Source: Candidatus Omnitrophota bacterium (lineage in GTDB: Bacteria; Omnitrophota; Gorgyraeia; Zapsychrales; Fredricksoniimonadaceae). From it: a DNA stretch of 64,000 nucleotides. The stretch covers positions 68,266 through 132,265 of the forward strand of contig CAJARJ010000012.1 in assembly GCA_903944345.1 (NCBI GenBank), in the 5' to 3' direction. This document shows, piece by piece, positions 513 to 9,139 of this stretch; the stretch's first letter is position 1, and each line of letters opens with the position of its first letter. Under the pieces are notes generated by a model. The model did not search any database. It worked only from the letters and a program-made list of their open reading frames with translations, and was not told the DNA's origin. A program made the position numbers and the translations under genes.

Positions 513-1208
513 TTATTCGCTTGCAAAAGCCCACATTTTTTCAACAGCCGTATCAACTGGTTTAGGCAAATTGCGGTCTTTAATAAAAGCGCCTAATGTC
601 CCTTTAGAACCAGAAACTTCTCTCGCAAGGCATTCAAGTGAAGCCATACTATGTTGAATAGCTCCGGTAACATCAGGTTCCGGTCTTTTTGATAAATCCT
701 CTCCTGCATGTTTTAATTCATTTAAAGCAGTGGGTCGCCCAGAATCATGTAAAAGAGATTTGGCTTCAGTTGTTATTTGCTCATAATCGCCTTCACCTCG
801 CACGGAAAGCACTCCACCTTCCATCTTCCAGCCGATGCCTTTTTTAAGAAAGAAATTATTTAACCCTTTCTCGAAGAACCTATCTGTTGCATCTTTTCGA
901 GCAAAAATTTCACAAATATCATAAACTTCAAACCATTCACAGTTATCAATCAAACCTTCACATTCATTAAGGACATTAGGATCACTCCAATTTTGAGCTT
1001 CATCCGGCAAGGAATCTAGCGCCTCACAAATAATGCTGCGCAAAGCCCTTGCATTAAATCCGCTCTTTAATGCTACGGACAATATTCCTCTTCGCAGAAA
1101 ACCTGGGGCCTCATAACGAACAGTAATGGACACTGTAGGTGCTTGATACCCATGTCTCTCTGAAAATAAAGGTTTTGTATTCATAAGGATTATGTCGCGA
1201 ATAAACAA
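513..1208 (-). CDS. Hypothetical protein (231 aa). Possible abortive-infection/defence-associated protein, but no motif recognised.
   Basis: Long ORF in the AT-rich island. It begins with a TTG start in the ORF track. It lies 6 bp downstream of a small membrane-protein gene on the same strand. Confidence 0.45.
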   Translation of the reverse strand: MFIRDIILMNTKPLFSERHGYQAPTVSITVRYEAPGFLRRGILSVALKSGFNARALRSIICEALDSLPDEAQNWSDPNVLNECEGLIDNCEWFEVYDICEIFARKDATDRFFEKGLNNFFLKKGIGWKMEGGVLSVRGEGDYEQITTEAKSLLHDSGRPTALNELKHAGEDLSKRPEPDVTGAIQHSMASLECLAREVSGSKGTLGAFIKDRNLPKPVDTAVEKMWAFASE

Positions 1209-2793: not shown

Positions 2794-3522
2794 CTAAACA
2801 GGCTCATCTTTCTTTTGCGCCTTAGCCGCAGCCAACACAAACGCACAGAGGCCAACAAAAATTGCTGCCGCTAAAGCCACCAACAATAACGGACACAAAA
2901 TTCCAGCGATCACATAAAGCAAGAAAAAGAACCCGTCCTTGAGCCAATTAAAACTTTGCTGTTTGACCTTCTTGGCGACAACATCAAACCAGATATCGTT
3001 ATAAAAGTCTATCGGCATGACCTTGTAAGGCGGATTCTCAAAGCAATAAGCATCCGCCTTCTGCAATCCAGTTGCAATTAGCTCAGAACAAAAATAGGAA
3101 TCATTTACATTAAAACAATCACCCAAAAACTTCTTGTCCAACAGGAAATGCAATCCAGCTGGAAGAAAGTTGAACAACGCGAAATAGATCAACGCCCGAA
3201 AATCATACTTCTTTGATTCTTCACCTTTACAAAAAGCTACAACCTTAGCGATAGCCTGTGCATTCGCTTTTATCGGTCGCAGCGCAAGCAGATCTAATTT
3301 CTCCGTCAAATACGCTTCCTTAAAACTCCTTTTGACGATTCCTCCAGGAAATGCCTCAACAACTTGTCCATATCCGATATATAGCGCCGCATGAGTCCAA
3401 CCACGATCCCCATACCCCCTTTTGAAGAAATTGGCCGTTCTGATCGGAAGCGACCCAAGCTCAAATCCCCTGCCGCAGGTCAAAACGACATCGCCCGGTT
3501 GAAGTTTTTCTTCTAAAGACAT
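2794..3522 (-). CDS. YiiX/YaeF (DUF830) family permuted papain-like cysteine peptidase with a C-terminal TM anchor.
   Basis: Motifs GWTHAALYIG and CSELI, with a C-terminal hydrophobic helix. It lies 18 bp downstream of the His-rich ORF on the same strand. Confidence 0.5.
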   Translation of the reverse strand: MSLEEKLQPGDVVLTCGRGFELGSLPIRTANFFKRGYGDRGWTHAALYIGYGQVVEAFPGGIVKRSFKEAYLTEKLDLLALRPIKANAQAIAKVVAFCKGEESKKYDFRALIYFALFNFLPAGLHFLLDKKFLGDCFNVNDSYFCSELIATGLQKADAYCFENPPYKVMPIDFYNDIWFDVVAKKVKQQSFNWLKDGFFFLLYVIAGILCPLLLVALAAAIFVGLCAFVLAAAKAQKKDEPV

Positions 3523-3540
3523 AAATCCCCCCTCATGCCA

Positions 3541-3924
3541 TTAGGCTAAAAATACTGCCTGCTGACGATTTGCTGGCTGCTTAATTACCCAAAGACGATA
3601 CCCTTTTCCATCCGAGTCCGGCTCGCGATCTGGAAGATCTTCATGAGAAATGTATTCCCAATGCACTTCATCAAAGAAATAATGGTGCTCCCTGAAATAA
3701 TGATAAAGCAATACCGCTCGAGCAACATTATACGGTGACAAGAAATGATCAGGATGATGCTGCTTGATGTATTCAAGGTCTAAGCGAAAATGGTATTGAA
3801 AAGAATCTTCCACAATTTTCTGATGACAATTATTATCGCGATAGGAAACGAAACAAATAACATCATCCCAATCGACCCGATCCTGGCTTTGCCTTCCATA
3901 AACCTTCATACAAATCGGAACCAT
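3541..3924 (-). CDS. His-rich hypothetical protein (127 aa). Last gene of the nucleotidyltransferase operon.
   Basis: ORF starts 3 bp after the stop of the upstream nucleotidyltransferase gene. Confidence 0.4.
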   Translation of the reverse strand: MVPICMKVYGRQSQDRVDWDDVICFVSYRDNNCHQKIVEDSFQYHFRLDLEYIKQHHPDHFLSPYNVARAVLLYHYFREHHYFFDEVHWEYISHEDLPDREPDSDGKGYRLWVIKQPANRQQAVFLA

Positions 3925-3927
3925 TTG

Positions 3928-4755
3928 TTACTCCTCACTAAGCTCGCAAGGCAAAGGTAAGAATTCAGCAAACGCAGCCGCCGCTTCAGCCGCAAAGCCC
4001 TTATTCTCTAACGACTGAACACATTGAACAAAATCTTTCAATTTATGAATTAACTCGCGCTTCCTTTCGGCTTCCATGTATCCGATATCAAACCTATCAA
4101 CAAACCGATAGAAGTGAGCACATATTGATTTGGGTGATTCATCAAAAATTGATTCAGCACTCTCAACGATTTCAACCACCTTTTGTTCAATAAAGAACGA
4201 TTCAAAAAGATACCCATTCTTTGCATTCCAATATTTGATTATTCTGACCAGTGGCTTTATGAGCCCAGAAAATTTGGTGTTCACGCTGGAAAGCTTGTCA
4301 TTGAAACCTTTTGGATCTGTATCCATCCAGTCATCCCCACATAACGACTTTACTGGAATCTTCAGCCCGCCCGACCACCGAGATTTTCTTGCCGGAACCA
4401 ACTCAAAGTTAATATGATTCAACGACAATACGATTGCCGGCGCTGACTGCGCGATTTCAGATTTTGCATAGCTTGACTCGACAAAACGACGCAATCTATC
4501 TAAATACGTCTGTGGTCTATTATATGGATCAGCAAAGACTACCATTAAGTCCACATCCGAATTCTGATCGACACTACGAGGTAGAATAGTCCCTCGACTA
4601 TACGATCCAAAAATAAAGCTATCCACAATCTCTTGTCCCAAAGACGTATTTAGCCGCTCTTGTAACGTTGAAATTGATTTCTTAAGGCCGAGCTTCTCGC
4701 CATCGTCAACACCGACAAAATCGACCAATTCTAAAAGGTACCTATTTACCGACAT
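3928..4755 (-). CDS. SMODS/CD-NTase-like nucleotidyltransferase (Pol-beta superfamily), second copy in the operon.
   Basis: Motif GSYSRGTILPRSVDQNSDVDLMVVF (GS...DxD) and a downstream FELVP acidic residue. Start chosen at MSVNRYL with a GGAG ribosome-binding site; it overlaps the upstream gene's stop by 11 bp. Confidence 0.55.
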   Translation of the reverse strand: MSVNRYLLELVDFVGVDDGEKLGLKKSISTLQERLNTSLGQEIVDSFIFGSYSRGTILPRSVDQNSDVDLMVVFADPYNRPQTYLDRLRRFVESSYAKSEIAQSAPAIVLSLNHINFELVPARKSRWSGGLKIPVKSLCGDDWMDTDPKGFNDKLSSVNTKFSGLIKPLVRIIKYWNAKNGYLFESFFIEQKVVEIVESAESIFDESPKSICAHFYRFVDRFDIGYMEAERKRELIHKLKDFVQCVQSLENKGFAAEAAAAFAEFLPLPCELSEE

Positions 4756-5251
4756 GCCCCGCTCCATCCACTCCGTACTGCGATCTGCCGGAATCAATAT
4801 CAGTTTTTGCCAACTCATAATCTTTACGGCCCACCGCCAGTGCGGTCTGATTTAATTCATCTCGCATTCTGGACAATGACAATAACCGTTGCTTTGCGGC
4901 ATTAACATCTGCCTCCACCACTTCTATCTGCCTAAAAATACGTGCCGCATTTCGTAGGGCTAAATATTGTCCGCCATACGTTTTATGCTTTTCCGATCTT
5001 TCCGAAGGGCGTAAAAACGTCAACACTGTCGTTAATGCCGCCGATGCGACAGCACAGGCCACGGCCCAACTGGGAGCCTTCTGAACGACAGAAACACCAG
5101 CCAGTGCGGCAACAACAGAAGCAGGAATTCCAATTAACAAATGATACCCATTCCATCTATCTGCGGCGTTATATTGCCCCTTTGCAGAATGCTCCGAGTC
5201 TTCTTCGATTCTCTTTGCTTCCTTAATCATTTCCTGAATAATTTCAGCCAT
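4742..5251 (-). CDS. SLATT-like 2-TM protein, candidate membrane effector.
   Basis: Two central hydrophobic helices flanked by charged helices. A GGAGG ribosome-binding site sits 5 nt upstream of ATG (MAEIIQEM). Positioned between the two nucleotidyltransferase genes. Confidence 0.45.
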   Translation of the reverse strand: MAEIIQEMIKEAKRIEEDSEHSAKGQYNAADRWNGYHLLIGIPASVVAALAGVSVVQKAPSWAVACAVASAALTTVLTFLRPSERSEKHKTYGGQYLALRNAARIFRQIEVVEADVNAAKQRLLSLSRMRDELNQTALAVGRKDYELAKTDIDSGRSQYGVDGAGHVGK

Positions 5252-5268
5252 ACCGCCTCCAAAATCAA

Positions 5269-6330
5269 TCAAAACGTTTCACCGAAGATTTGCCGCCAAA
5301 GTTCAATCGCCTGATCTTGATTTCCAACCTGCTCAGCCTCAAATGCCAACCGGGCAACGCCAGCCATCTTGTTGACAATAAAACGATGGTGATCGGAAAC
5401 ATCCCCCGGAGAAACCAATGGAGCTTGATTCACAAATGACGACAAACTCCCCGAGCTTATCGCGACATTCACGGCATAGAAAGCAAAAGCAACTGCTTCC
5501 GATACTTTTGCAGCATAGTTTCCAGCGCTATTTGAATCCAGAAACCTCCTCGCTATGGCGAGCTCAACATAGTATGACTGCAACGCTCCGTTCAGCGCCT
5601 CCTTGTTCCAAAACTTGAGTATTTTAATCGCCTTCTTATATGACCGAGCATTATTCTGATGAAGCTTATTAGCAATTTCTTTATCAACTTTCGGATTGGT
5701 TCTAATCCATCCGTCCTGTCCGTCGGGTATTAAATAAAATTTCGCTTCACTTATTGCATCTGGCCGCATAAGAAAACAGGGAACGACATCAAACCCGAGA
5801 CCATCTTCGTCCTCGGTTTCGCCATGGGCCATCGCAATTCTTACGGCCTCCCCGTCAGGACGTACATCTGTTCTCGGATAATGCCTCTGAAGAACAGCAG
5901 ACAACCCACTGATCAGCTTTCTGGAAGATATGTAACTTCCGGACATCCATCGGGCAGTCAGTAAGGGATTGCTCGATAAGACACCATCTGAAACGACTGT
6001 ATAGGGAAGGCGTAATCCATCTTGAAGATAATTGAGACTGTACCCATCTAAAGGAAAATAAATATCAATATCATCAAGCGGCCATATTTTTGTGTGACGT
6101 GCAAACGATCCACCTAAAAAATCCCGATCCTGAACTGACAACACACTCGGAAAAGTTTGATCATTCTGATACTCGGATGATAAAAAATCTCTCAAATGAT
6201 TCTGGCTGTCACTAGCTTTCGACCTAATCCCATCCTCTATATTGATCTGCTTCCTCAACAACTCATCAAATGCACCGTTGACAGCGCTGCTCGCGGATTC
6301 TTTCAAAATAGCATTCAGTAATGCGCTCAT
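5269..6330 (-). CDS. SMODS/CD-NTase-like nucleotidyltransferase (Pol-beta superfamily), first copy, 353 aa.
   Basis: Motif GGSFARHTKIWPLDDIDIYF (GS...DxD) and a third acidic residue in GFDVVP. A GGAGG ribosome-binding site precedes the ATG. Confidence 0.55.
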   Translation of the reverse strand: MSALLNAILKESASSAVNGAFDELLRKQINIEDGIRSKASDSQNHLRDFLSSEYQNDQTFPSVLSVQDRDFLGGSFARHTKIWPLDDIDIYFPLDGYSLNYLQDGLRLPYTVVSDGVLSSNPLLTARWMSGSYISSRKLISGLSAVLQRHYPRTDVRPDGEAVRIAMAHGETEDEDGLGFDVVPCFLMRPDAISEAKFYLIPDGQDGWIRTNPKVDKEIANKLHQNNARSYKKAIKILKFWNKEALNGALQSYYVELAIARRFLDSNSAGNYAAKVSEAVAFAFYAVNVAISSGSLSSFVNQAPLVSPGDVSDHHRFIVNKMAGVARLAFEAEQVGNQDQAIELWRQIFGETF

Positions 6331-6334
6331 CCTT

Positions 6335-6547
6335 CTACCTCCCGTTAATCAAATCATTAAGGGAGGCCACACGCTTATGGTCCAGCAATGTATCCAAATG
6401 CATATCGGCTCGAACGCCAAGATCTACACCATACTTCTTTTCGATAGTGCCAATATGAGTATCGCCTCGCTTCGCGCGAAGCGGTCCTGCTTCAGTTCTC
6501 GATCTGCAACCTCTCATACCTGGAGCATCGTTCTTACATTTACTCAT
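6335..6547 (-). CDS. Small hypothetical protein (70 aa). First gene of the operon.
   Basis: An AGGAGG ribosome-binding site sits 6 nt upstream of ATG (MSKCKND). Its stop is 4 bp before the NTase-1 start. Confidence 0.4.
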   Translation of the reverse strand: MSKCKNDAPGMRGCRSRTEAGPLRAKRGDTHIGTIEKKYGVDLGVRADMHLDTLLDHKRVASLNDLINGR

Positions 6548-6838
6548 GGGAACCTCCTGTGTTTTTATTTGATTAAACTTGACGATTCCCATGTTGACTG
6601 GTCTAATACAGACAAAAAGGGAACAGAAGTCTCGTTTCAAGCGACCTTCCAAATTTCTCTTAAGCCCTCGGTTGCCGCCGAGGGCTTTTTCTTTCTATAA
6701 ATAATGTCTTCTGTATATCATTTCCCACCATTAGTAGTATACATCTCTTAAAGAATACCAATATATTGATTTCCTGTCAAGAATAAAAAACCACTCATAC
6801 GTGTGGCCACAAATCAATATCTTAAAAATTCCATGTTC

Positions 6839-6859
6839 TTTTACGCTTATAGCGTAAAA
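6839..6859. promoter_or_regulatory. Perfect 21-bp palindrome TTTTACGC-TTATA-GCGTAAAA, candidate operator.
   Basis: Seen in the sequence. It lies between the ImmA-like gene and the nucleotidyltransferase operon, inside its promoter region. Confidence 0.4.
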
Positions 6860-6875
6860 CGTAAATAAAAAAATA

Positions 6876-7586
6876 TTACCGCTCTCTAAGATCACGGTAA
6901 CTATCAATACCATTAAGCTGAAGTTCAAAATCATCTTCGGCAAGCGACAACAGCCCCAAGTTCTGTAAACGAATTGTAGCCGCCTGTTTTGAAACGTCGA
7001 ACAACCTCACTAAAGTGTTAACCAAAAACTCGTGATCGTTAGACTTTGATCGAATCTGCTTTACACATTGTTCAAAGATCGACCGTGGCATTAGTAAGGC
7101 TGCCGCTCCCCGATTCGCTTGCCACTCCGTATAATCACCAACCTTGGGCTGATCGTTTCCAACGTCTTCCTTAATTGTATGATTATGACAGAACAGCCTC
7201 CCCGCACCTTGAAAAAGAGGGCCATGAACTAACGCGTGAAACGACTCATGAGCACATGTAAAACGAAAACGCCCGCGCACCTGAACAGCGTTTCTTTCCT
7301 TGTATAAGCCTGCGCTTATCCTAATTAAACATGACTTGTCTTGATTAAAGACAGTCGCGCCTAAGACCCCAGACGGCAAATCAGAATCATCAGGACTGTA
7401 CTCAACGCGCTCCTTAAATAGCCGGTCGATAAAATTTCCGACATCGATGGCAGGACGATTGACATCAATCTTGCCTCCGCAAAAGCGGTAGTACCGCTCC
7501 TCCATGAAGTCATCGATATCAGCTCCCGAACAGATTAACCTCCGTCCGTAAGTAGCCTGATTGTCTGTTATCCAACGCATTGCCAT
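6876..7586 (-). CDS. ImmA/IrrE-family zinc metallopeptidase (CapP-like).
   Basis: HExxH motif (CAHESFHALVH). Immediately downstream of an XRE HTH gene. Confidence 0.6.
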   Translation of the reverse strand: MAMRWITDNQATYGRRLICSGADIDDFMEERYYRFCGGKIDVNRPAIDVGNFIDRLFKERVEYSPDDSDLPSGVLGATVFNQDKSCLIRISAGLYKERNAVQVRGRFRFTCAHESFHALVHGPLFQGAGRLFCHNHTIKEDVGNDQPKVGDYTEWQANRGAAALLMPRSIFEQCVKQIRSKSNDHEFLVNTLVRLFDVSKQAATIRLQNLGLLSLAEDDFELQLNGIDSYRDLRER

Positions 7587-7598
7587 ACTTTGCTCTCA

Positions 7599-7955
7599 TT
7601 ACTTGTCCAATTCCTTCTTTAAACGCTCAAGAACACCCGGGTCAGCTTGAGCCTTCTCTGCTATGCGACGAAACAACACCCCGACCTCTACTTCCTTGTT
7701 CACGGCATCTTCAATAATCGGGTCAACCTTGCCTGCCTTGCCCAACAGCTCTTGCACATCTAGATTCAAAACTTTCGCAAGCTGAACAACAACCTTCCCG
7801 GTTGGAGGATTGCGCCTCCCCTGCTCGATATCATTCAAATATGATACCGAAATGGCGTTTCCATCATCATTAAGTACGGCTTCGCAAACCTTGCGTAAAC
7901 TATATTCCAGCCTGAGCCGCTGTTGCTTTATATTTTGCCCAAATGTAATTACCAT
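7599..7955 (-). CDS. XRE-family helix-turn-helix transcriptional regulator (CapH-like).
   Basis: N-terminal HTH (QQRLRLEYSLRKVCEAV...SYLNDIEQGRR). Paired with the ImmA-like peptidase. Confidence 0.6.
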   Translation of the reverse strand: MVITFGQNIKQQRLRLEYSLRKVCEAVLNDDGNAISVSYLNDIEQGRRNPPTGKVVVQLAKVLNLDVQELLGKAGKVDPIIEDAVNKEVEVGVLFRRIAEKAQADPGVLERLKKELDK

Positions 7956-8068
7956 GTCCTCATAAGCATACAGCGTAACGCTGGAGTGTCAAGAAGAATA
8001 TTGGAGAACCACACTATGACTAATAAATATGGCGGGATTTTAAAACTTACGGATTATCAATATTCTAG

Positions 8069-8098
8069 TTAATTAGTGACACACAGAATTGTTTCTTG
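8069..8098. repeat. 30-bp direct-repeat module, right copy (TTAATTAGTGACACACAGAATTGTTTCTT).
   Basis: 29 of 30 positions identical to 119..148. A TTGACA hexamer sits at 8096..8101. Confidence 0.7.
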
Positions 8099-8172
8099 AC
8101 ATTCTTTACGACAATTAAACTTGTTGCACTCTGGATTTTTTCATTGCAGTAGAATGTAACAGAATGTGATAG

Positions 8173-8190
8173 AACAATTCTGTGTGTCAC
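8173..8190. repeat. Inverted partner 18-mer AACAATTCTGTGTGTCAC, 78 bp from 8077..8094.
   Basis: Identical to 185..202. Confidence 0.7.
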
Positions 8191-8201
8191 CAGTTCCTTA
8201 T

Positions 8202-8222
8202 TGGCTCCCCCGCGAGGGCTCG
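8202..8222 (-). repeat. Duplicated 3' fragment of tRNA-Asn (acceptor/T-stem 18-mer plus an encoded CCA); att-like remnant.
   Basis: CTCCCCCGCGAGGGCTCG at 8205..8222 is identical to 8411..8428, the 3' end of the tRNA-Asn gene. It is preceded by TGG (CCA on the minus strand). Confidence 0.6.
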
Positions 8223-8405
8223 TTGCCTTCCGCTCGCGCTGAAGATCTTGGAAGGGATCCTTTATCAGCGCTCGCTACAGGTCACACCCCCGGCCCGCAC
8301 TCAGACGCTCCTGTTCGTCGCGTCTAGCGGGCCTCCTTTCTCGCCCTCGCTTCCTCCGTTATATCTAATAAAAAAGCCGCCCTGAAAAGGACGGCTTTTT
8401 TATTA
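8223..8405 (+). ncRNA. Candidate small RNA / conserved tRNA-flanking element, copy A.
   Basis: Paralogous to 38530..38735. Conserved hairpin AGACGC-UCCUGUUCGUC-GCGUCU. Ends in an intrinsic terminator. Convergent with the tRNA-Asn gene. Confidence 0.3.
8371..8401. terminator. Bidirectional rho-independent terminator (A-tract, GC hairpin, T-tract).
   Basis: AAAAAAGCCGCCCTGAAAAGGACGGCTTTTTT. It lies between tRNA-Asn (minus strand) and the candidate sRNA (plus strand). Confidence 0.6.
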
Positions 8406-8448
8406 AATAACTCCCCCGCGAGGGCTCGAACCTCGGACACTGTGGTTA

Positions 8449-9002
8449 CGATCTGACTTCAATTACTTGAAGAGTCGGACTTTCTCTTCGCCATACAAAA
8501 CAAAGTATGTTTTGCTTCAGGCGGCGGGTGTAAAGTCTCTGCACTTGCCCGGCCTTTTGACTAAAGGCCTGCTAGCTCAGGATTGACCTGATCTTTATGA
8601 CCAGGCTTTTCCTGACTTAGCCCGCTTGTCACTTCCGCGTTTCCACGGAAGGCTGCTAACTTTGAGAATGAGTTTCCCGGTGACAATTCGCACACAATAT
8701 CATGCACTTATCCAACTCGACTTTAACTCTTTCCCAACTTCGGGTATACCCTTTGCTGGAGATATTAAATTCTTTAACTGTTGGATCAATGTGATGAAAC
8801 TCTAACGCATCGATACAGCGATCATATCCGCAACGCTCACATTTGCCGCCTTTATAGGCAACAGCCATTTCACGCACTTTTTTACGGCGCGCATAAACAG
8901 CTTTAATGAGATATTCACGGCGATCATTGTAAGAACGGTTATCTTTTCTCACGCTGTCTCCTGAAGACTCGACACTCGGTTTGGACCAGCCAAACCTCGT
9001 GA
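8449..9002 (-). mobile_element. Candidate group I self-splicing intron with an HNH homing-endonuclease ORF.
   Basis: Exon 1 ends in U and the intron ends in G. R-like element GCAGAGACUUUA and S-like element AAGAGAAAGUCCGA can form a GACU/AGUC P7 helix. Several hairpins lie in the 3' 250 nt. The ORF has CxxC...HH...CxxCH. Confidence 0.6.
8656..8952 (-). CDS. HNH endonuclease (about 100 aa), encoded inside the intron.
   Basis: CERCGY...EFHHIDP...CANCHRETH. A GTG start has AGGAGA 5 nt upstream. The ORF-track frame is open back into exon 1, up to 9012. Confidence 0.55.
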   Translation of the reverse strand: MRKDNRSYNDRREYLIKAVYARRKKVREMAVAYKGGKCERCGYDRCIDALEFHHIDPTVKEFNISSKGYTRSWERVKVELDKCMILCANCHRETHSQS

Positions 9003-9139
9003 ACAGCCACATGCTCTACCAACTGAGCTACAGGGGAATGAAATTTAAAAGAGCGAATGTTTGCTGCCAAAAAAATATGCGGCAAACGAAAGCGAGATGA
9101 ATTATACAGATATATTTTATCTTGTCAACCACCGAAACG

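Follow-up and report, generated by a model that had tools for sequence, protein, structure and literature searches.

A probable repressor–peptidase switch with paired DdrO-like operators in front of exchangeable immune operons, seen from a Candidatus Omnitrophota locus

How an immune operon is kept silent, and what switches it on, is an active question for toxic abortive-infection systems such as the cyclic oligonucleotide-based anti-phage signalling systems (CBASS). One of three known answers is CapH/CapP, a CBASS-associated helix-turn-helix (HTH) repressor paired with an M78 peptidase that is switched on by single-stranded DNA (ssDNA) (Lau et al. 2022, bioRxiv 10.1101/2022.04.27.489752; Calloji et al. 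2026), and control of CBASS by HTH–M78 pairs is already established. The question arises again at a locus of a Candidatus Omnitrophota bacterium (GenBank assembly GCA_903944345.1, contig CAJARJ010000012.1, positions 68,266 to 132,265 of the forward strand; this stretch of 64,000 nucleotides is here called the window), where genes for an XRE-family HTH protein and an ImmA/IrrE-type peptidase stand before an operon encoding two cGAS/DncV-like nucleotidyltransferases (CD-NTases). On balance, we consider it probable that this pair is a repressor–protease switch that stands before immune operons as a portable control module. It would belong to the XRE/COG2856 (M78) superfamily, of which DdrO/IrrE, ImmR/ImmA and CapH/CapP are also members.

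The minus strand carries every gene of the window's first ~9 kb. The gene for the XRE-family repressor (7599..7955, 118 aa; Pfam HTH_31, 3e-8, and HTH_3, 6e-8; PADLOC capH, 0.004) is followed after a gap of 12 nt by that for a zinc metallopeptidase of the M78 type (6876..7586, 236 aa; Pfam PF06114, Peptidase_M78, 6e-11; PADLOC capP, 7.7e-16). These matches bear out the identity proposed for the pair in a first-pass annotation, made by a model from the sequence alone, as well as its placement upstream of the nucleotidyltransferase operon and on the same strand. The AlphaFold2 model of the HTH protein (predicted local distance difference test, pLDDT, 93) comprises an N-terminal HTH domain (helices 5-74) and three C-terminal helices (79-117), which are the putative means of its oligomerisation. 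Among 27 HTH homologues (alignment A3), L94 and R96 are invariant and F95 is nearly so, making L94-F95-R96 a candidate site of repressor cleavage. The best sequence match of the HTH protein in the PDB is DdrOC (E 0.007), and Foldseek searches with its model return SinR and DdrO at 30% identity, the N-terminal domain of CapH appearing only at rank 43. In addition, the recognition region of DdrO, ISVPYLSDLERGRTNP, closely resembles ISVSYLNDIEQGRRNP of the window protein.

The HExxH motif of the peptidase reads HESFH (H113-H117), and E154 (EWQANRGAAALLMP) provides the third zinc ligand. H113, E114, H117 and E154 are invariant in an alignment of 27 peptidase sequences (A1), in which C133 is conserved in at least 90%, and an invariant E140-D141 pair is located between the zinc ligands, after the strand that bears C133. 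In the AlphaFold2 model (pLDDT 85; predicted template-modelling score, pTM, 0.83) this cysteine sits on a beta-strand (129-134) between H117 and E154. It is thus placed like the cysteine-switch residue of CapP, where a loop over the active site is found in 33% of the proteins, with a spacing unlike that of C114/D117/D118. The modelled chain continues in HTH-like linker helices up to residue 209 and ends in a disordered tail (216-236), and no GAF domain is present in its 236 residues. By comparison, the GAF-bearing chains of CapP, IrrE and PprI measure 291-301 aa; in E. coli CapP (288 aa) the GAF domain spans residues 182-288, and ssDNA is held in the groove between peptidase and GAF domain. 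IrrE/PprI is the top Foldseek match of the model (E ~6e-4, TM score 0.42), and a profile of the peptidase family matches IrrE (1.2e-3) and CapP (7t5t, 4.4e-3) in the PDB, so that IrrE, PprI and CapP are all similarly weak relatives. A direct sequence link to the solved CapP was sought with single-sequence phmmer and rejected, only an IrrE orthologue being returned (E 0.78).

The 328 nt that separate the peptidase gene from the operon contain, at 6839..6859, the sequence TTTTACGCTTATAGCGTAAAA (hereafter O2). It had been described as a perfect 21-bp palindrome, and it is indeed a large inverted repeat, of 9-bp arms around a 3-nt centre, but its positions 10 and 12 are both T, which breaks the full 21-bp symmetry; its 17-bp core (6841-6857) reads TTACGC-TATAA-GCGTAA. 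Inverted repeats with arms of at least 9 and loops of at most 5 nt number seven in the whole window and one in its first 9 kb, and a first-order Markov model gives a probability of 0.017 that the 328-nt stretch contains at least one. Stronger than this chance estimate, and in our view decisive at the level of sequence comparison, is the conservation of the element in homologous loci, which were gathered from 34 database relatives of the peptidase (48-65% identity) by exact look-up and by scans of genomes and metagenomes. In all 19 unique close loci the peptidase stop codon is followed by aaa-T7-9, 9 nt, TTACGC-N5-GCGTAA and AAGAACA. Each of the first 11 close loci, the window included, carries exactly two copies of the motif, of the TTACGC-N5-GC[GT]TA type, one at the HTH promoter and the other after the peptidase stop, with L009 slightly off the strict pattern. 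Within the 64-kb window the exact TTACGC-N5-GCGTAA occurs once, the next-best match within the island, with two mismatches, is that of the HTH promoter, and no further copies rise above chance, the two-mismatch matches outside the module being at chance level.

The sequence of O2 also corresponds to that of a known operator. DdrO recognizes the radiation-desiccation response motif (RDRM), a 17-bp TTAYGY-N5-RCRTAA element (PMC8533742), the form of which is satisfied by O2. Natural instances include those of uvrB, CTTACGCTGTGGGCGTAAA (TTACGC-TGTGG-GCGTAA), and recG, GTTACGCTGTGAGCGAAAT (PMC8533742), and several natural RDRMs likewise read TTACGC-N5-GCGTAA. Because O2 has the RDRM form, and because DdrO is both the best solved sequence relative of the HTH protein and among its best structural matches, the HTH protein is the obvious candidate ligand of the palindrome, and O2 is very likely its strong site. 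One could also suppose that the palindrome acts as a nucleic-acid hairpin, whether it stabilises the 5' end of the mRNA, marks a site of processing or belongs to a terminator, in view of its 9-bp stem (-7.7 kcal/mol as DNA, z -4.1) and of the symmetric covariation of its outer positions, such as TCTCTTACGC...GCGTAAGAGA in L002. Yet the half-sites are kept in sequence, and not just in pairing, across the 19 loci; the HTH promoter carries a non-palindromic copy of which only the left half is intact; a known protein operator has the same sequence; and on the coding strand the T-run precedes the stem, whence O2 was rejected as an intrinsic terminator on either strand. We therefore regard a hairpin role as very improbable. 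A second palindrome had been put forward together with O2 as a plausible operator. This GTGGCCAC element (6804..6811), part of a 10-bp palindrome, TGTGGCCACA, at 6803..6812, can be ruled out in that capacity, as none of the homologous loci contains it and palindromes of its class (arm 5) arise in 34% of simulations of the 328-nt stretch; TGTGGCCACA is probably only part of a weak hairpin that, with a T-run, occupies 6808..6789 on the minus strand.

The other copy of the motif is found at the promoter of the HTH gene, within a stretch (7956..8200) that the first-pass annotation had also named for repressor binding. This promoter, P_HTH (7965..7992, minus strand; promoter scan 10/12), combines TTGACA at -35 (7992..7987), a 16-nt spacer and TATGCT at -10 (7970..7965), and, because the ATG of the HTH gene (7955) lies only 9 nt past the -10 element, its mRNA is inferred to be leaderless or nearly so. 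The arrangement TTGACA-N9-TTACGCTGTAYGCTWAY-N4-ACATG precedes the HTH gene in 18 out of 18 non-truncated homologous loci. The degenerate operator, TTACGCTGTATGCTTAT (7962..7978, minus strand; hereafter O1), overlaps the -10 element and retains an intact left half-site, whereas its right half is altered into a working type of -10 (TAnGCT, with T as its last letter) about 16-17 nt past TTGACA. In the same register O2 reads TAAGCG, without the final T, and is thus a perfect operator and a poor -10. Since the right half of O1 serves as a -10 and the O2 palindrome is perfect and lacks one, O1 can be predicted to be a promoter with a half-strength operator and O2 a full-strength operator with little promoter activity.

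What follows O2 differs from locus to locus. The window and all 19 close-family loci have HTH gene, peptidase gene and cargo in one order and on a single strand, and the cargo consists of CBASS genes (SMODS/DncV-like cyclases, in one case with a patatin) in the window, L002/4/5 and L109; of Prok-E2_E with ThiF in L001, L006, L010, L101 and L107; of Multi_ubiq with DUF6791-ThiF in L013 and L112; of DUF2188 proteins in L011 (with DUF6791-ThiF), L008 and, from the pattern of open reading frames (ORFs) only, L100; of DUF3892 proteins in L012 and, again from the ORF pattern only, L103; of ThsB_TIR in L009; and of LTD proteins in L007 and L106. Homologues of the pair are hence found beside several nucleotidyltransferase/CBASS operons, an association whose complete absence would have spoken against the reading of the pair as a CBASS regulator. 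In most loci the cargo Shine-Dalgarno sequence begins 5-35 nt past O2 and AAGAACA. The latter element (6832..6840, minus strand) is conserved and abuts O2, and in the window it runs into an ATG and a 6-codon mini-ORF. Homology between the window and its closest relative (L205, with an HTH protein 81% identical) stops right after GAACA. The downstream edge of O2, after AAGAACA, therefore appears from these alignments to be a sharp junction of cargo exchange, and the variation of cargo per locus together with the end of homology at this edge characterizes the regulator as a portable module. Joint migration of cyclase and regulator was considered and rejected, since relatives of the window cyclase occur elsewhere without the HTH–peptidase pair and also without the 70-aa ORF that leads the window operon. 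Some family members do reside in phage-like or integrative and conjugative element (ICE)-like DNA, with terminase or serine-recombinase genes nearby. A role of the window pair in prophage immunity was nonetheless discarded, as viral contigs of IMG/VR hold no close relatives (at most 39% identity over the best segment; 35% for the best, L179, and 32% for the top-ranked L177) and the island is devoid of phage or ICE genes.

Between the peptidase stop codon and O2 lies a further conserved element. In the window, a T7 run on the minus strand (6867..6873, an A-run on the plus strand) begins 2 nt past the stop codon (6876-6878), exactly 9 nt separate its end from O2, and T7-9 followed by N9 precedes O2 in 19 of the 19 close loci. 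Beyond the close family, a set of 137 unique homologues with 26-39% identity, from Planctomycetota, Clostridia and others (loci L018, L025-L082 and L121-L168), has, in 62 cases, a run of at least 6 T no more than 40 nt from the peptidase stop, against 68 of 953 control ORF stops (7%). In 36 of these 62 the order is T7-8, mostly N9 (range 8-11), a GTTCNN-N6-NNGAAC palindrome and a ribosome-binding site (RBS); the spacing is thus retained while the palindrome differs, and the succession of stop codon, T-run, N9 and palindrome extends, with differing palindromes, through Omnitrophota, Planctomycetota and Clostridia. The Phycisphaerae are particularly informative in this respect. Their P_HTH reads TTGACY-N14-operator, with its -10 (TACTAT) in the left half-site, so that a degenerate operator copy again overlaps the -10, while their T-run is off the -35 register and their post-peptidase copy lacks a recognisable -10. 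Because the -35 of the Phycisphaerae P_HTH sits 14 nt from the operator, the T-run seems to be coupled to the operator rather than to a -35 role.

Taken together, these observations suggest a simple mechanism. An HTH dimer would bind two RDRM-like sites. At O1, on the -10 of P_HTH, the right half-site would have been given up for a working -10, and binding would be weaker and autoregulatory; at O2, the full palindrome just past the peptidase stop and 9 nt beyond the T7 run, the bound repressor would control the entry of transcription into any cargo that follows. Upon a stress signal, the peptidase would cut within the C-terminal dimerisation helices, most likely at F95|R96 of the L-F|R motif, whereupon dimer and DNA binding would be lost, P_HTH would become active and transcription would proceed into the cargo. 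Polymerases are known to stall ~12-15 bp upstream of an obstacle such as EcoRI or LacI. Given the switch as a whole, our preferred form of gating, although we would put it slightly below an even chance, is roadblock-assisted termination, in which the O2-bound repressor would halt polymerase arriving from P_HTH while the enzyme's active site is over the U-tract, and transcript release would follow. Roadblocking of polymerase by DNA-bound repressors is established (PMC4132739, PMC10310618). A bolder version, which we offer tentatively, would make the stop/T7-9/9-nt/operator unit a hairpin-free, repressor-dependent terminator that cleavage opens like a gate and that is in widespread use as a co-directional plug-in; the GAF-less peptidase would then have to sense its signal otherwise than CapP and IrrE do, and any immune cargo recombined just past AAGAACA would become inducible.

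Several points weigh against the switch, or against this form of it. Binding by the HTH protein, its cleavage and the inducing signal are all taken over by homology from characterised proteins of 20-30% identity. According to the structural model, the ssDNA groove of IrrE and CapP cannot exist in a GAF-less peptidase, and the sensing of DNA damage or ssDNA is thus not simply transferable to the window protein, as the GAF domain is absent. The conserved AAGAACA after O2 is left unexplained by roadblocking. Moreover, when the close-family element is set against P_HTH, its T-run coincides exactly with the -35 register and the conserved ACA with that of +1, as would be expected of an internal promoter no less than of a roadblock. 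Finally, in ~28% of GC-rich homologues the T-run is directly adjoined by a strong hairpin, and the whole resembles a plain intrinsic terminator, in which case their cargo would need a promoter of its own. In the window itself, the CBASS operon may be largely independent of the switch, given the promoter-like site P2, 58 nt past O2, and a weak hairpin and T-run between the two, as discussed below.

Much of this can be accommodated by a weak cargo promoter at O2, with the T-run as its -35 or UP element, a -10 in or near the palindrome and a start at the conserved A of GAACA, which the repressor would occlude; read-through from P_HTH would then be irrelevant or stopped at a T-run terminator. In the close family, the element after the peptidase gene is laid out colinearly with P_HTH, in that T-run and TTGACA each lie 9 nt from TTACGC and ACA is equidistant, and in AT-rich distant homologues the centre of the palindrome can resemble a -10, as in GTTCGG-TATAAT-CCGAAC of L127. 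On the other hand, the -35 register of the close family reads TTTTTT and the -10 register TAAGCG, TACGCG or TTAGCG, always without the final T, and in the Phycisphaerae the positions that correspond to the elements of their own P_HTH show no recognisable -35 or -10, for which reason a sigma-70 reading of the element was rejected in both groups. Nor are hairpins ahead of the T-run significantly stronger than gene-internal controls across the families (p 0.13, 0.11 and 0.66), even though the window and its closest relative each have a hairpin of -10.3 kcal/mol, of moderate strength in the window, spanning the peptidase stop codon; an ordinary hairpin terminator with the T-run as its U-tract may be a partial contributor. 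We hold the internal promoter to be a serious alternative, albeit one with well under an even chance of being correct, and under both readings the palindrome would be the operator of the repressor.

The operon of the window requires separate consideration. It comprises six genes with tight or overlapping junctions (2794..6547, minus strand; PADLOC, NCBIfam and the gene calls in L091), namely a 70-aa leading ORF (6335-6547) for which no match was obtained in Pfam, PADLOC, NCBIfam or the PDB; a first CD-NTase (5269-6330; PADLOC Cyclase, 5e-49); a two-transmembrane (2TM) SLATT effector (4742-5251/5272; PADLOC 2TM effector, 1e-61; NCBIfam SLATT_4, 2e-34); a second CD-NTase (3928-4755/4818; PADLOC Cyclase, 1.5e-85); a 127-aa protein without an assigned family (3541-3924); and a 242-aa YaeF/C92-like (permuted-papain) protein with a hydrophobic C-terminal tail (2794-3522; NCBIfam YaeF family). 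NCBIfam CBASS_cyclase_b is also matched, and a CD-NTase (SMODS) and an effector are thus encoded in one operon, as is characteristic of CBASS, with two differing cyclases. The first of these genes begins ~290 nt from O2. Between them lie the mini-ORF, the weak hairpin and T-run (6808..6789, minus strand), a terminator-like scan match of six pairs of which two are read as G-U, and P2 (6752..6780, minus strand; scan 10/12), a promoter-like TTGACA-17-TATTCT with a TG extension. P2 is peculiar to the CBASS cassette of the window, the relatives having their cargo RBS directly after O2. It is followed by a putative leader of ~200 nt (6548..6745, minus strand; RNA fold -52.3 kcal/mol, z -2.2) with a strong hairpin at 6662-6687 and a 10-bp stem that buries the Shine-Dalgarno sequence and AUG of the 70-aa ORF; an Rfam search of 6300-9100, leader included, yielded no relevant RNA element or riboswitch at E<=1.

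With a promoter-like P2 and a leader inside these ~290 nt, the CBASS cassette appears to have come with its own expression signals. Control of the nucleotidyltransferase operon by the pair is thus less direct than the first-pass annotation had supposed, since P2 and the ~290-nt stretch separate O2 from the CBASS genes. It could even be that the pair is a leftover or a self-contained unit, whether immunity- or toxin–antitoxin-like or deprived of its original cargo, while CBASS runs from P2 and is tuned by its leader. Such a view would accommodate the weak hairpin, T-run and TG-extended, sigma-70-like promoter that intervene, the end of homology right after GAACA, the existence of homologous cyclases without the pair, the sequestered start of the first ORF, which suggests a separate post-transcriptional control, and the annotation of XRE/COG2856 pairs as toxin–antitoxin systems in the literature. 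We nevertheless judge it unlikely: pair and operon share a single strand with no strong terminator between them, and derepressed P_HTH transcription should get as far as the operon; neither ORF is damaged, nor are O1, O2 or the T-run, and all match the family consensus; the neighbourhood consists of immune genes only and offers the pair no phage, integrase or excisionase genes as targets; and in most relatives O2 abuts the cargo RBS, so that cargo there is necessarily O2-controlled. Once derepressed, P_HTH rather likely still sends transcripts into the CBASS operon, the expression of which would then be both basal and inducible. A switch acting as sole control of this operon is unlikely; control is probably partial, the switch providing an inducible boost over basal expression. 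Such a combination is consistent with the E. coli CapH/CapP system, in which protection does not require capP (Lau et al. 2022, bioRxiv 10.1101/2022.04.27.489752).

The module belongs to a low-GC defence island of ~8 kb, in which Pfam, PADLOC and the gene calls reveal no integrase or excisionase. On either side of the whole island lies one of two directly repeated copies of a long hairpin element (121-208 and 8071-8195; arms TAGTGACACRCAGAATTGTT, loops of 38 and 55 nt, ssDNA fold z -5.5 and -5.8) which, among 205 loci, was detected in this organism only and which could be a recombination site, the end of a mobile element or a regulatory site. Next to it, a tRNA-Asn(GUU) gene (8411-9037, minus strand) is interrupted in its anticodon loop by a group I intron of 554 nt (9002..8449; Rfam RF00028, 60.9 bits); a raw scan misses this tRNA, and the joined segments 9037..9003 and 8448..8411 are recognized by ARAGORN as a 73-nt tRNA-Asn. 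The ORF of the intron (8656..9012 frame) can be read as HNH-type from its Cys/His motifs and has no database match. An 18-bp direct repeat, CTCCCCCGCGAGGGCTCG, at 8205-8222 and 8411-8428 corresponds to the 3' end of the tRNA (T-arm and acceptor) and resembles an att-type duplication, and the 188 bp between its copies include a bidirectional, terminator-like hairpin (8362-8409). At the far end of the island lies the gene for an AbiJ_NTD4/PDC-S32 protein (513-1208, minus strand), followed by two unannotated ORFs in 1215-2334, of 110 aa (membrane-spanning by eye) and 207 aa, and by a 28-nt imperfect inverted repeat, CTTGGGGTTGTTCAAGACCCCTCCCCCT / AGGGGGTGGGGTCTTGAACGAACTGAAG (2552-2624), in the intergenic stretch 2335-2793. 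An Ank-repeat gene is located just outside the start of the window.

The observation made in the first-pass annotation is thus partly confirmed and its interpretation partly supported. The locus represents a distinct and phylogenetically broad branch, defined by a GAF-less peptidase, co-directional genes, a strictly spaced T-run and a sharp exchange junction, in which two operators would divide the labour, a weak one on the repressor's own -10 and a perfect one gating the cargo. It offers a simple and testable model for inducible read-through control, and its cis-element, T7-9, N9 and TTACGC-N5-GCGTAA, could serve in searches for regulated immune cargo among uncultured phyla. At the same time, the window advises caution in equating adjacency with control, because the CBASS cassette possesses a promoter-like site of its own.

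The likeness to CapH/CapP invoked in the first-pass annotation is real in several respects. Both pairs combine an XRE HTH protein bearing a C-terminal helical oligomerisation region with an HExxH M78 peptidase, before immune operons, and the cargo described by Lau et al. is that of the present family (CBASS, DUF2188, DUF3892, E1/E2 and multi-ubiquitin systems). The cysteine-switch loop of CapP may have a counterpart in the Cys-bearing strand between HExxH and third zinc ligand, and the F82|R83 of CapH finds a parallel in the aromatic|Arg motif in the C-terminal helix of the window repressor. However, CapP is a three-domain chain with a C-terminal GAF domain and an ssDNA groove, and the sequence relation of the solved CapP to the window peptidase is marginal (profile E 4e-3) and no nearer than that of IrrE. 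CapH/CapP is also divergent from its cargo, with a shared promoter region (in the 'vast majority', 'all' or 'all but one' of cases), whereas the window family is co-directional and has a second operator after the peptidase gene. The operators differ as well; the E. coli CapH site is a 22-bp element upstream of the -35, and the window operators are RDRM-like. As it lacks both the GAF domain and the divergent orientation, we do not class the pair as CapH/CapP.

DdrO/IrrE (PprI), which governs the radiation-desiccation response of Deinococcus, shares with the module an operator form identical to O2. DdrO has three C-terminal helices and is cleaved at a hydrophobic|Arg bond (L106|R107), as predicted here for the HTH protein, and IrrE/PprI are the best structural matches of the window peptidase, but IrrE carries a GAF domain. 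In Deinococcus the regulon is dispersed over ~20 RDRM promoters, whereas the genes of the module are adjacent and overlap or almost do, and the motif occurs in 64 kb at the two sites of the module only; furthermore, DdrO/IrrE targets DNA-repair genes and the cargo of the module consists of immune genes. The ImmR/ImmA pairs of ICEBs1 and phage phi105, in turn, have the same order of repressor, peptidase and downstream gene(s) on one strand, and an autoregulated repressor promoter, as in the window. ImmA is also a short peptidase, like that of the window, and is not known to carry a GAF domain. ImmR/ImmA controls integrase, excision, transfer or lytic genes, while in the window family the downstream genes encode anti-phage systems. 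Hence, the pair is neither a CapP orthologue nor a member of CapH/CapP, but a distinct XRE/COG2856 branch that probably works like it: CapH/CapP-like in function, nearest to DdrO by operator and HTH sequence, and nearest to ImmR/ImmA by gene order and peptidase size.

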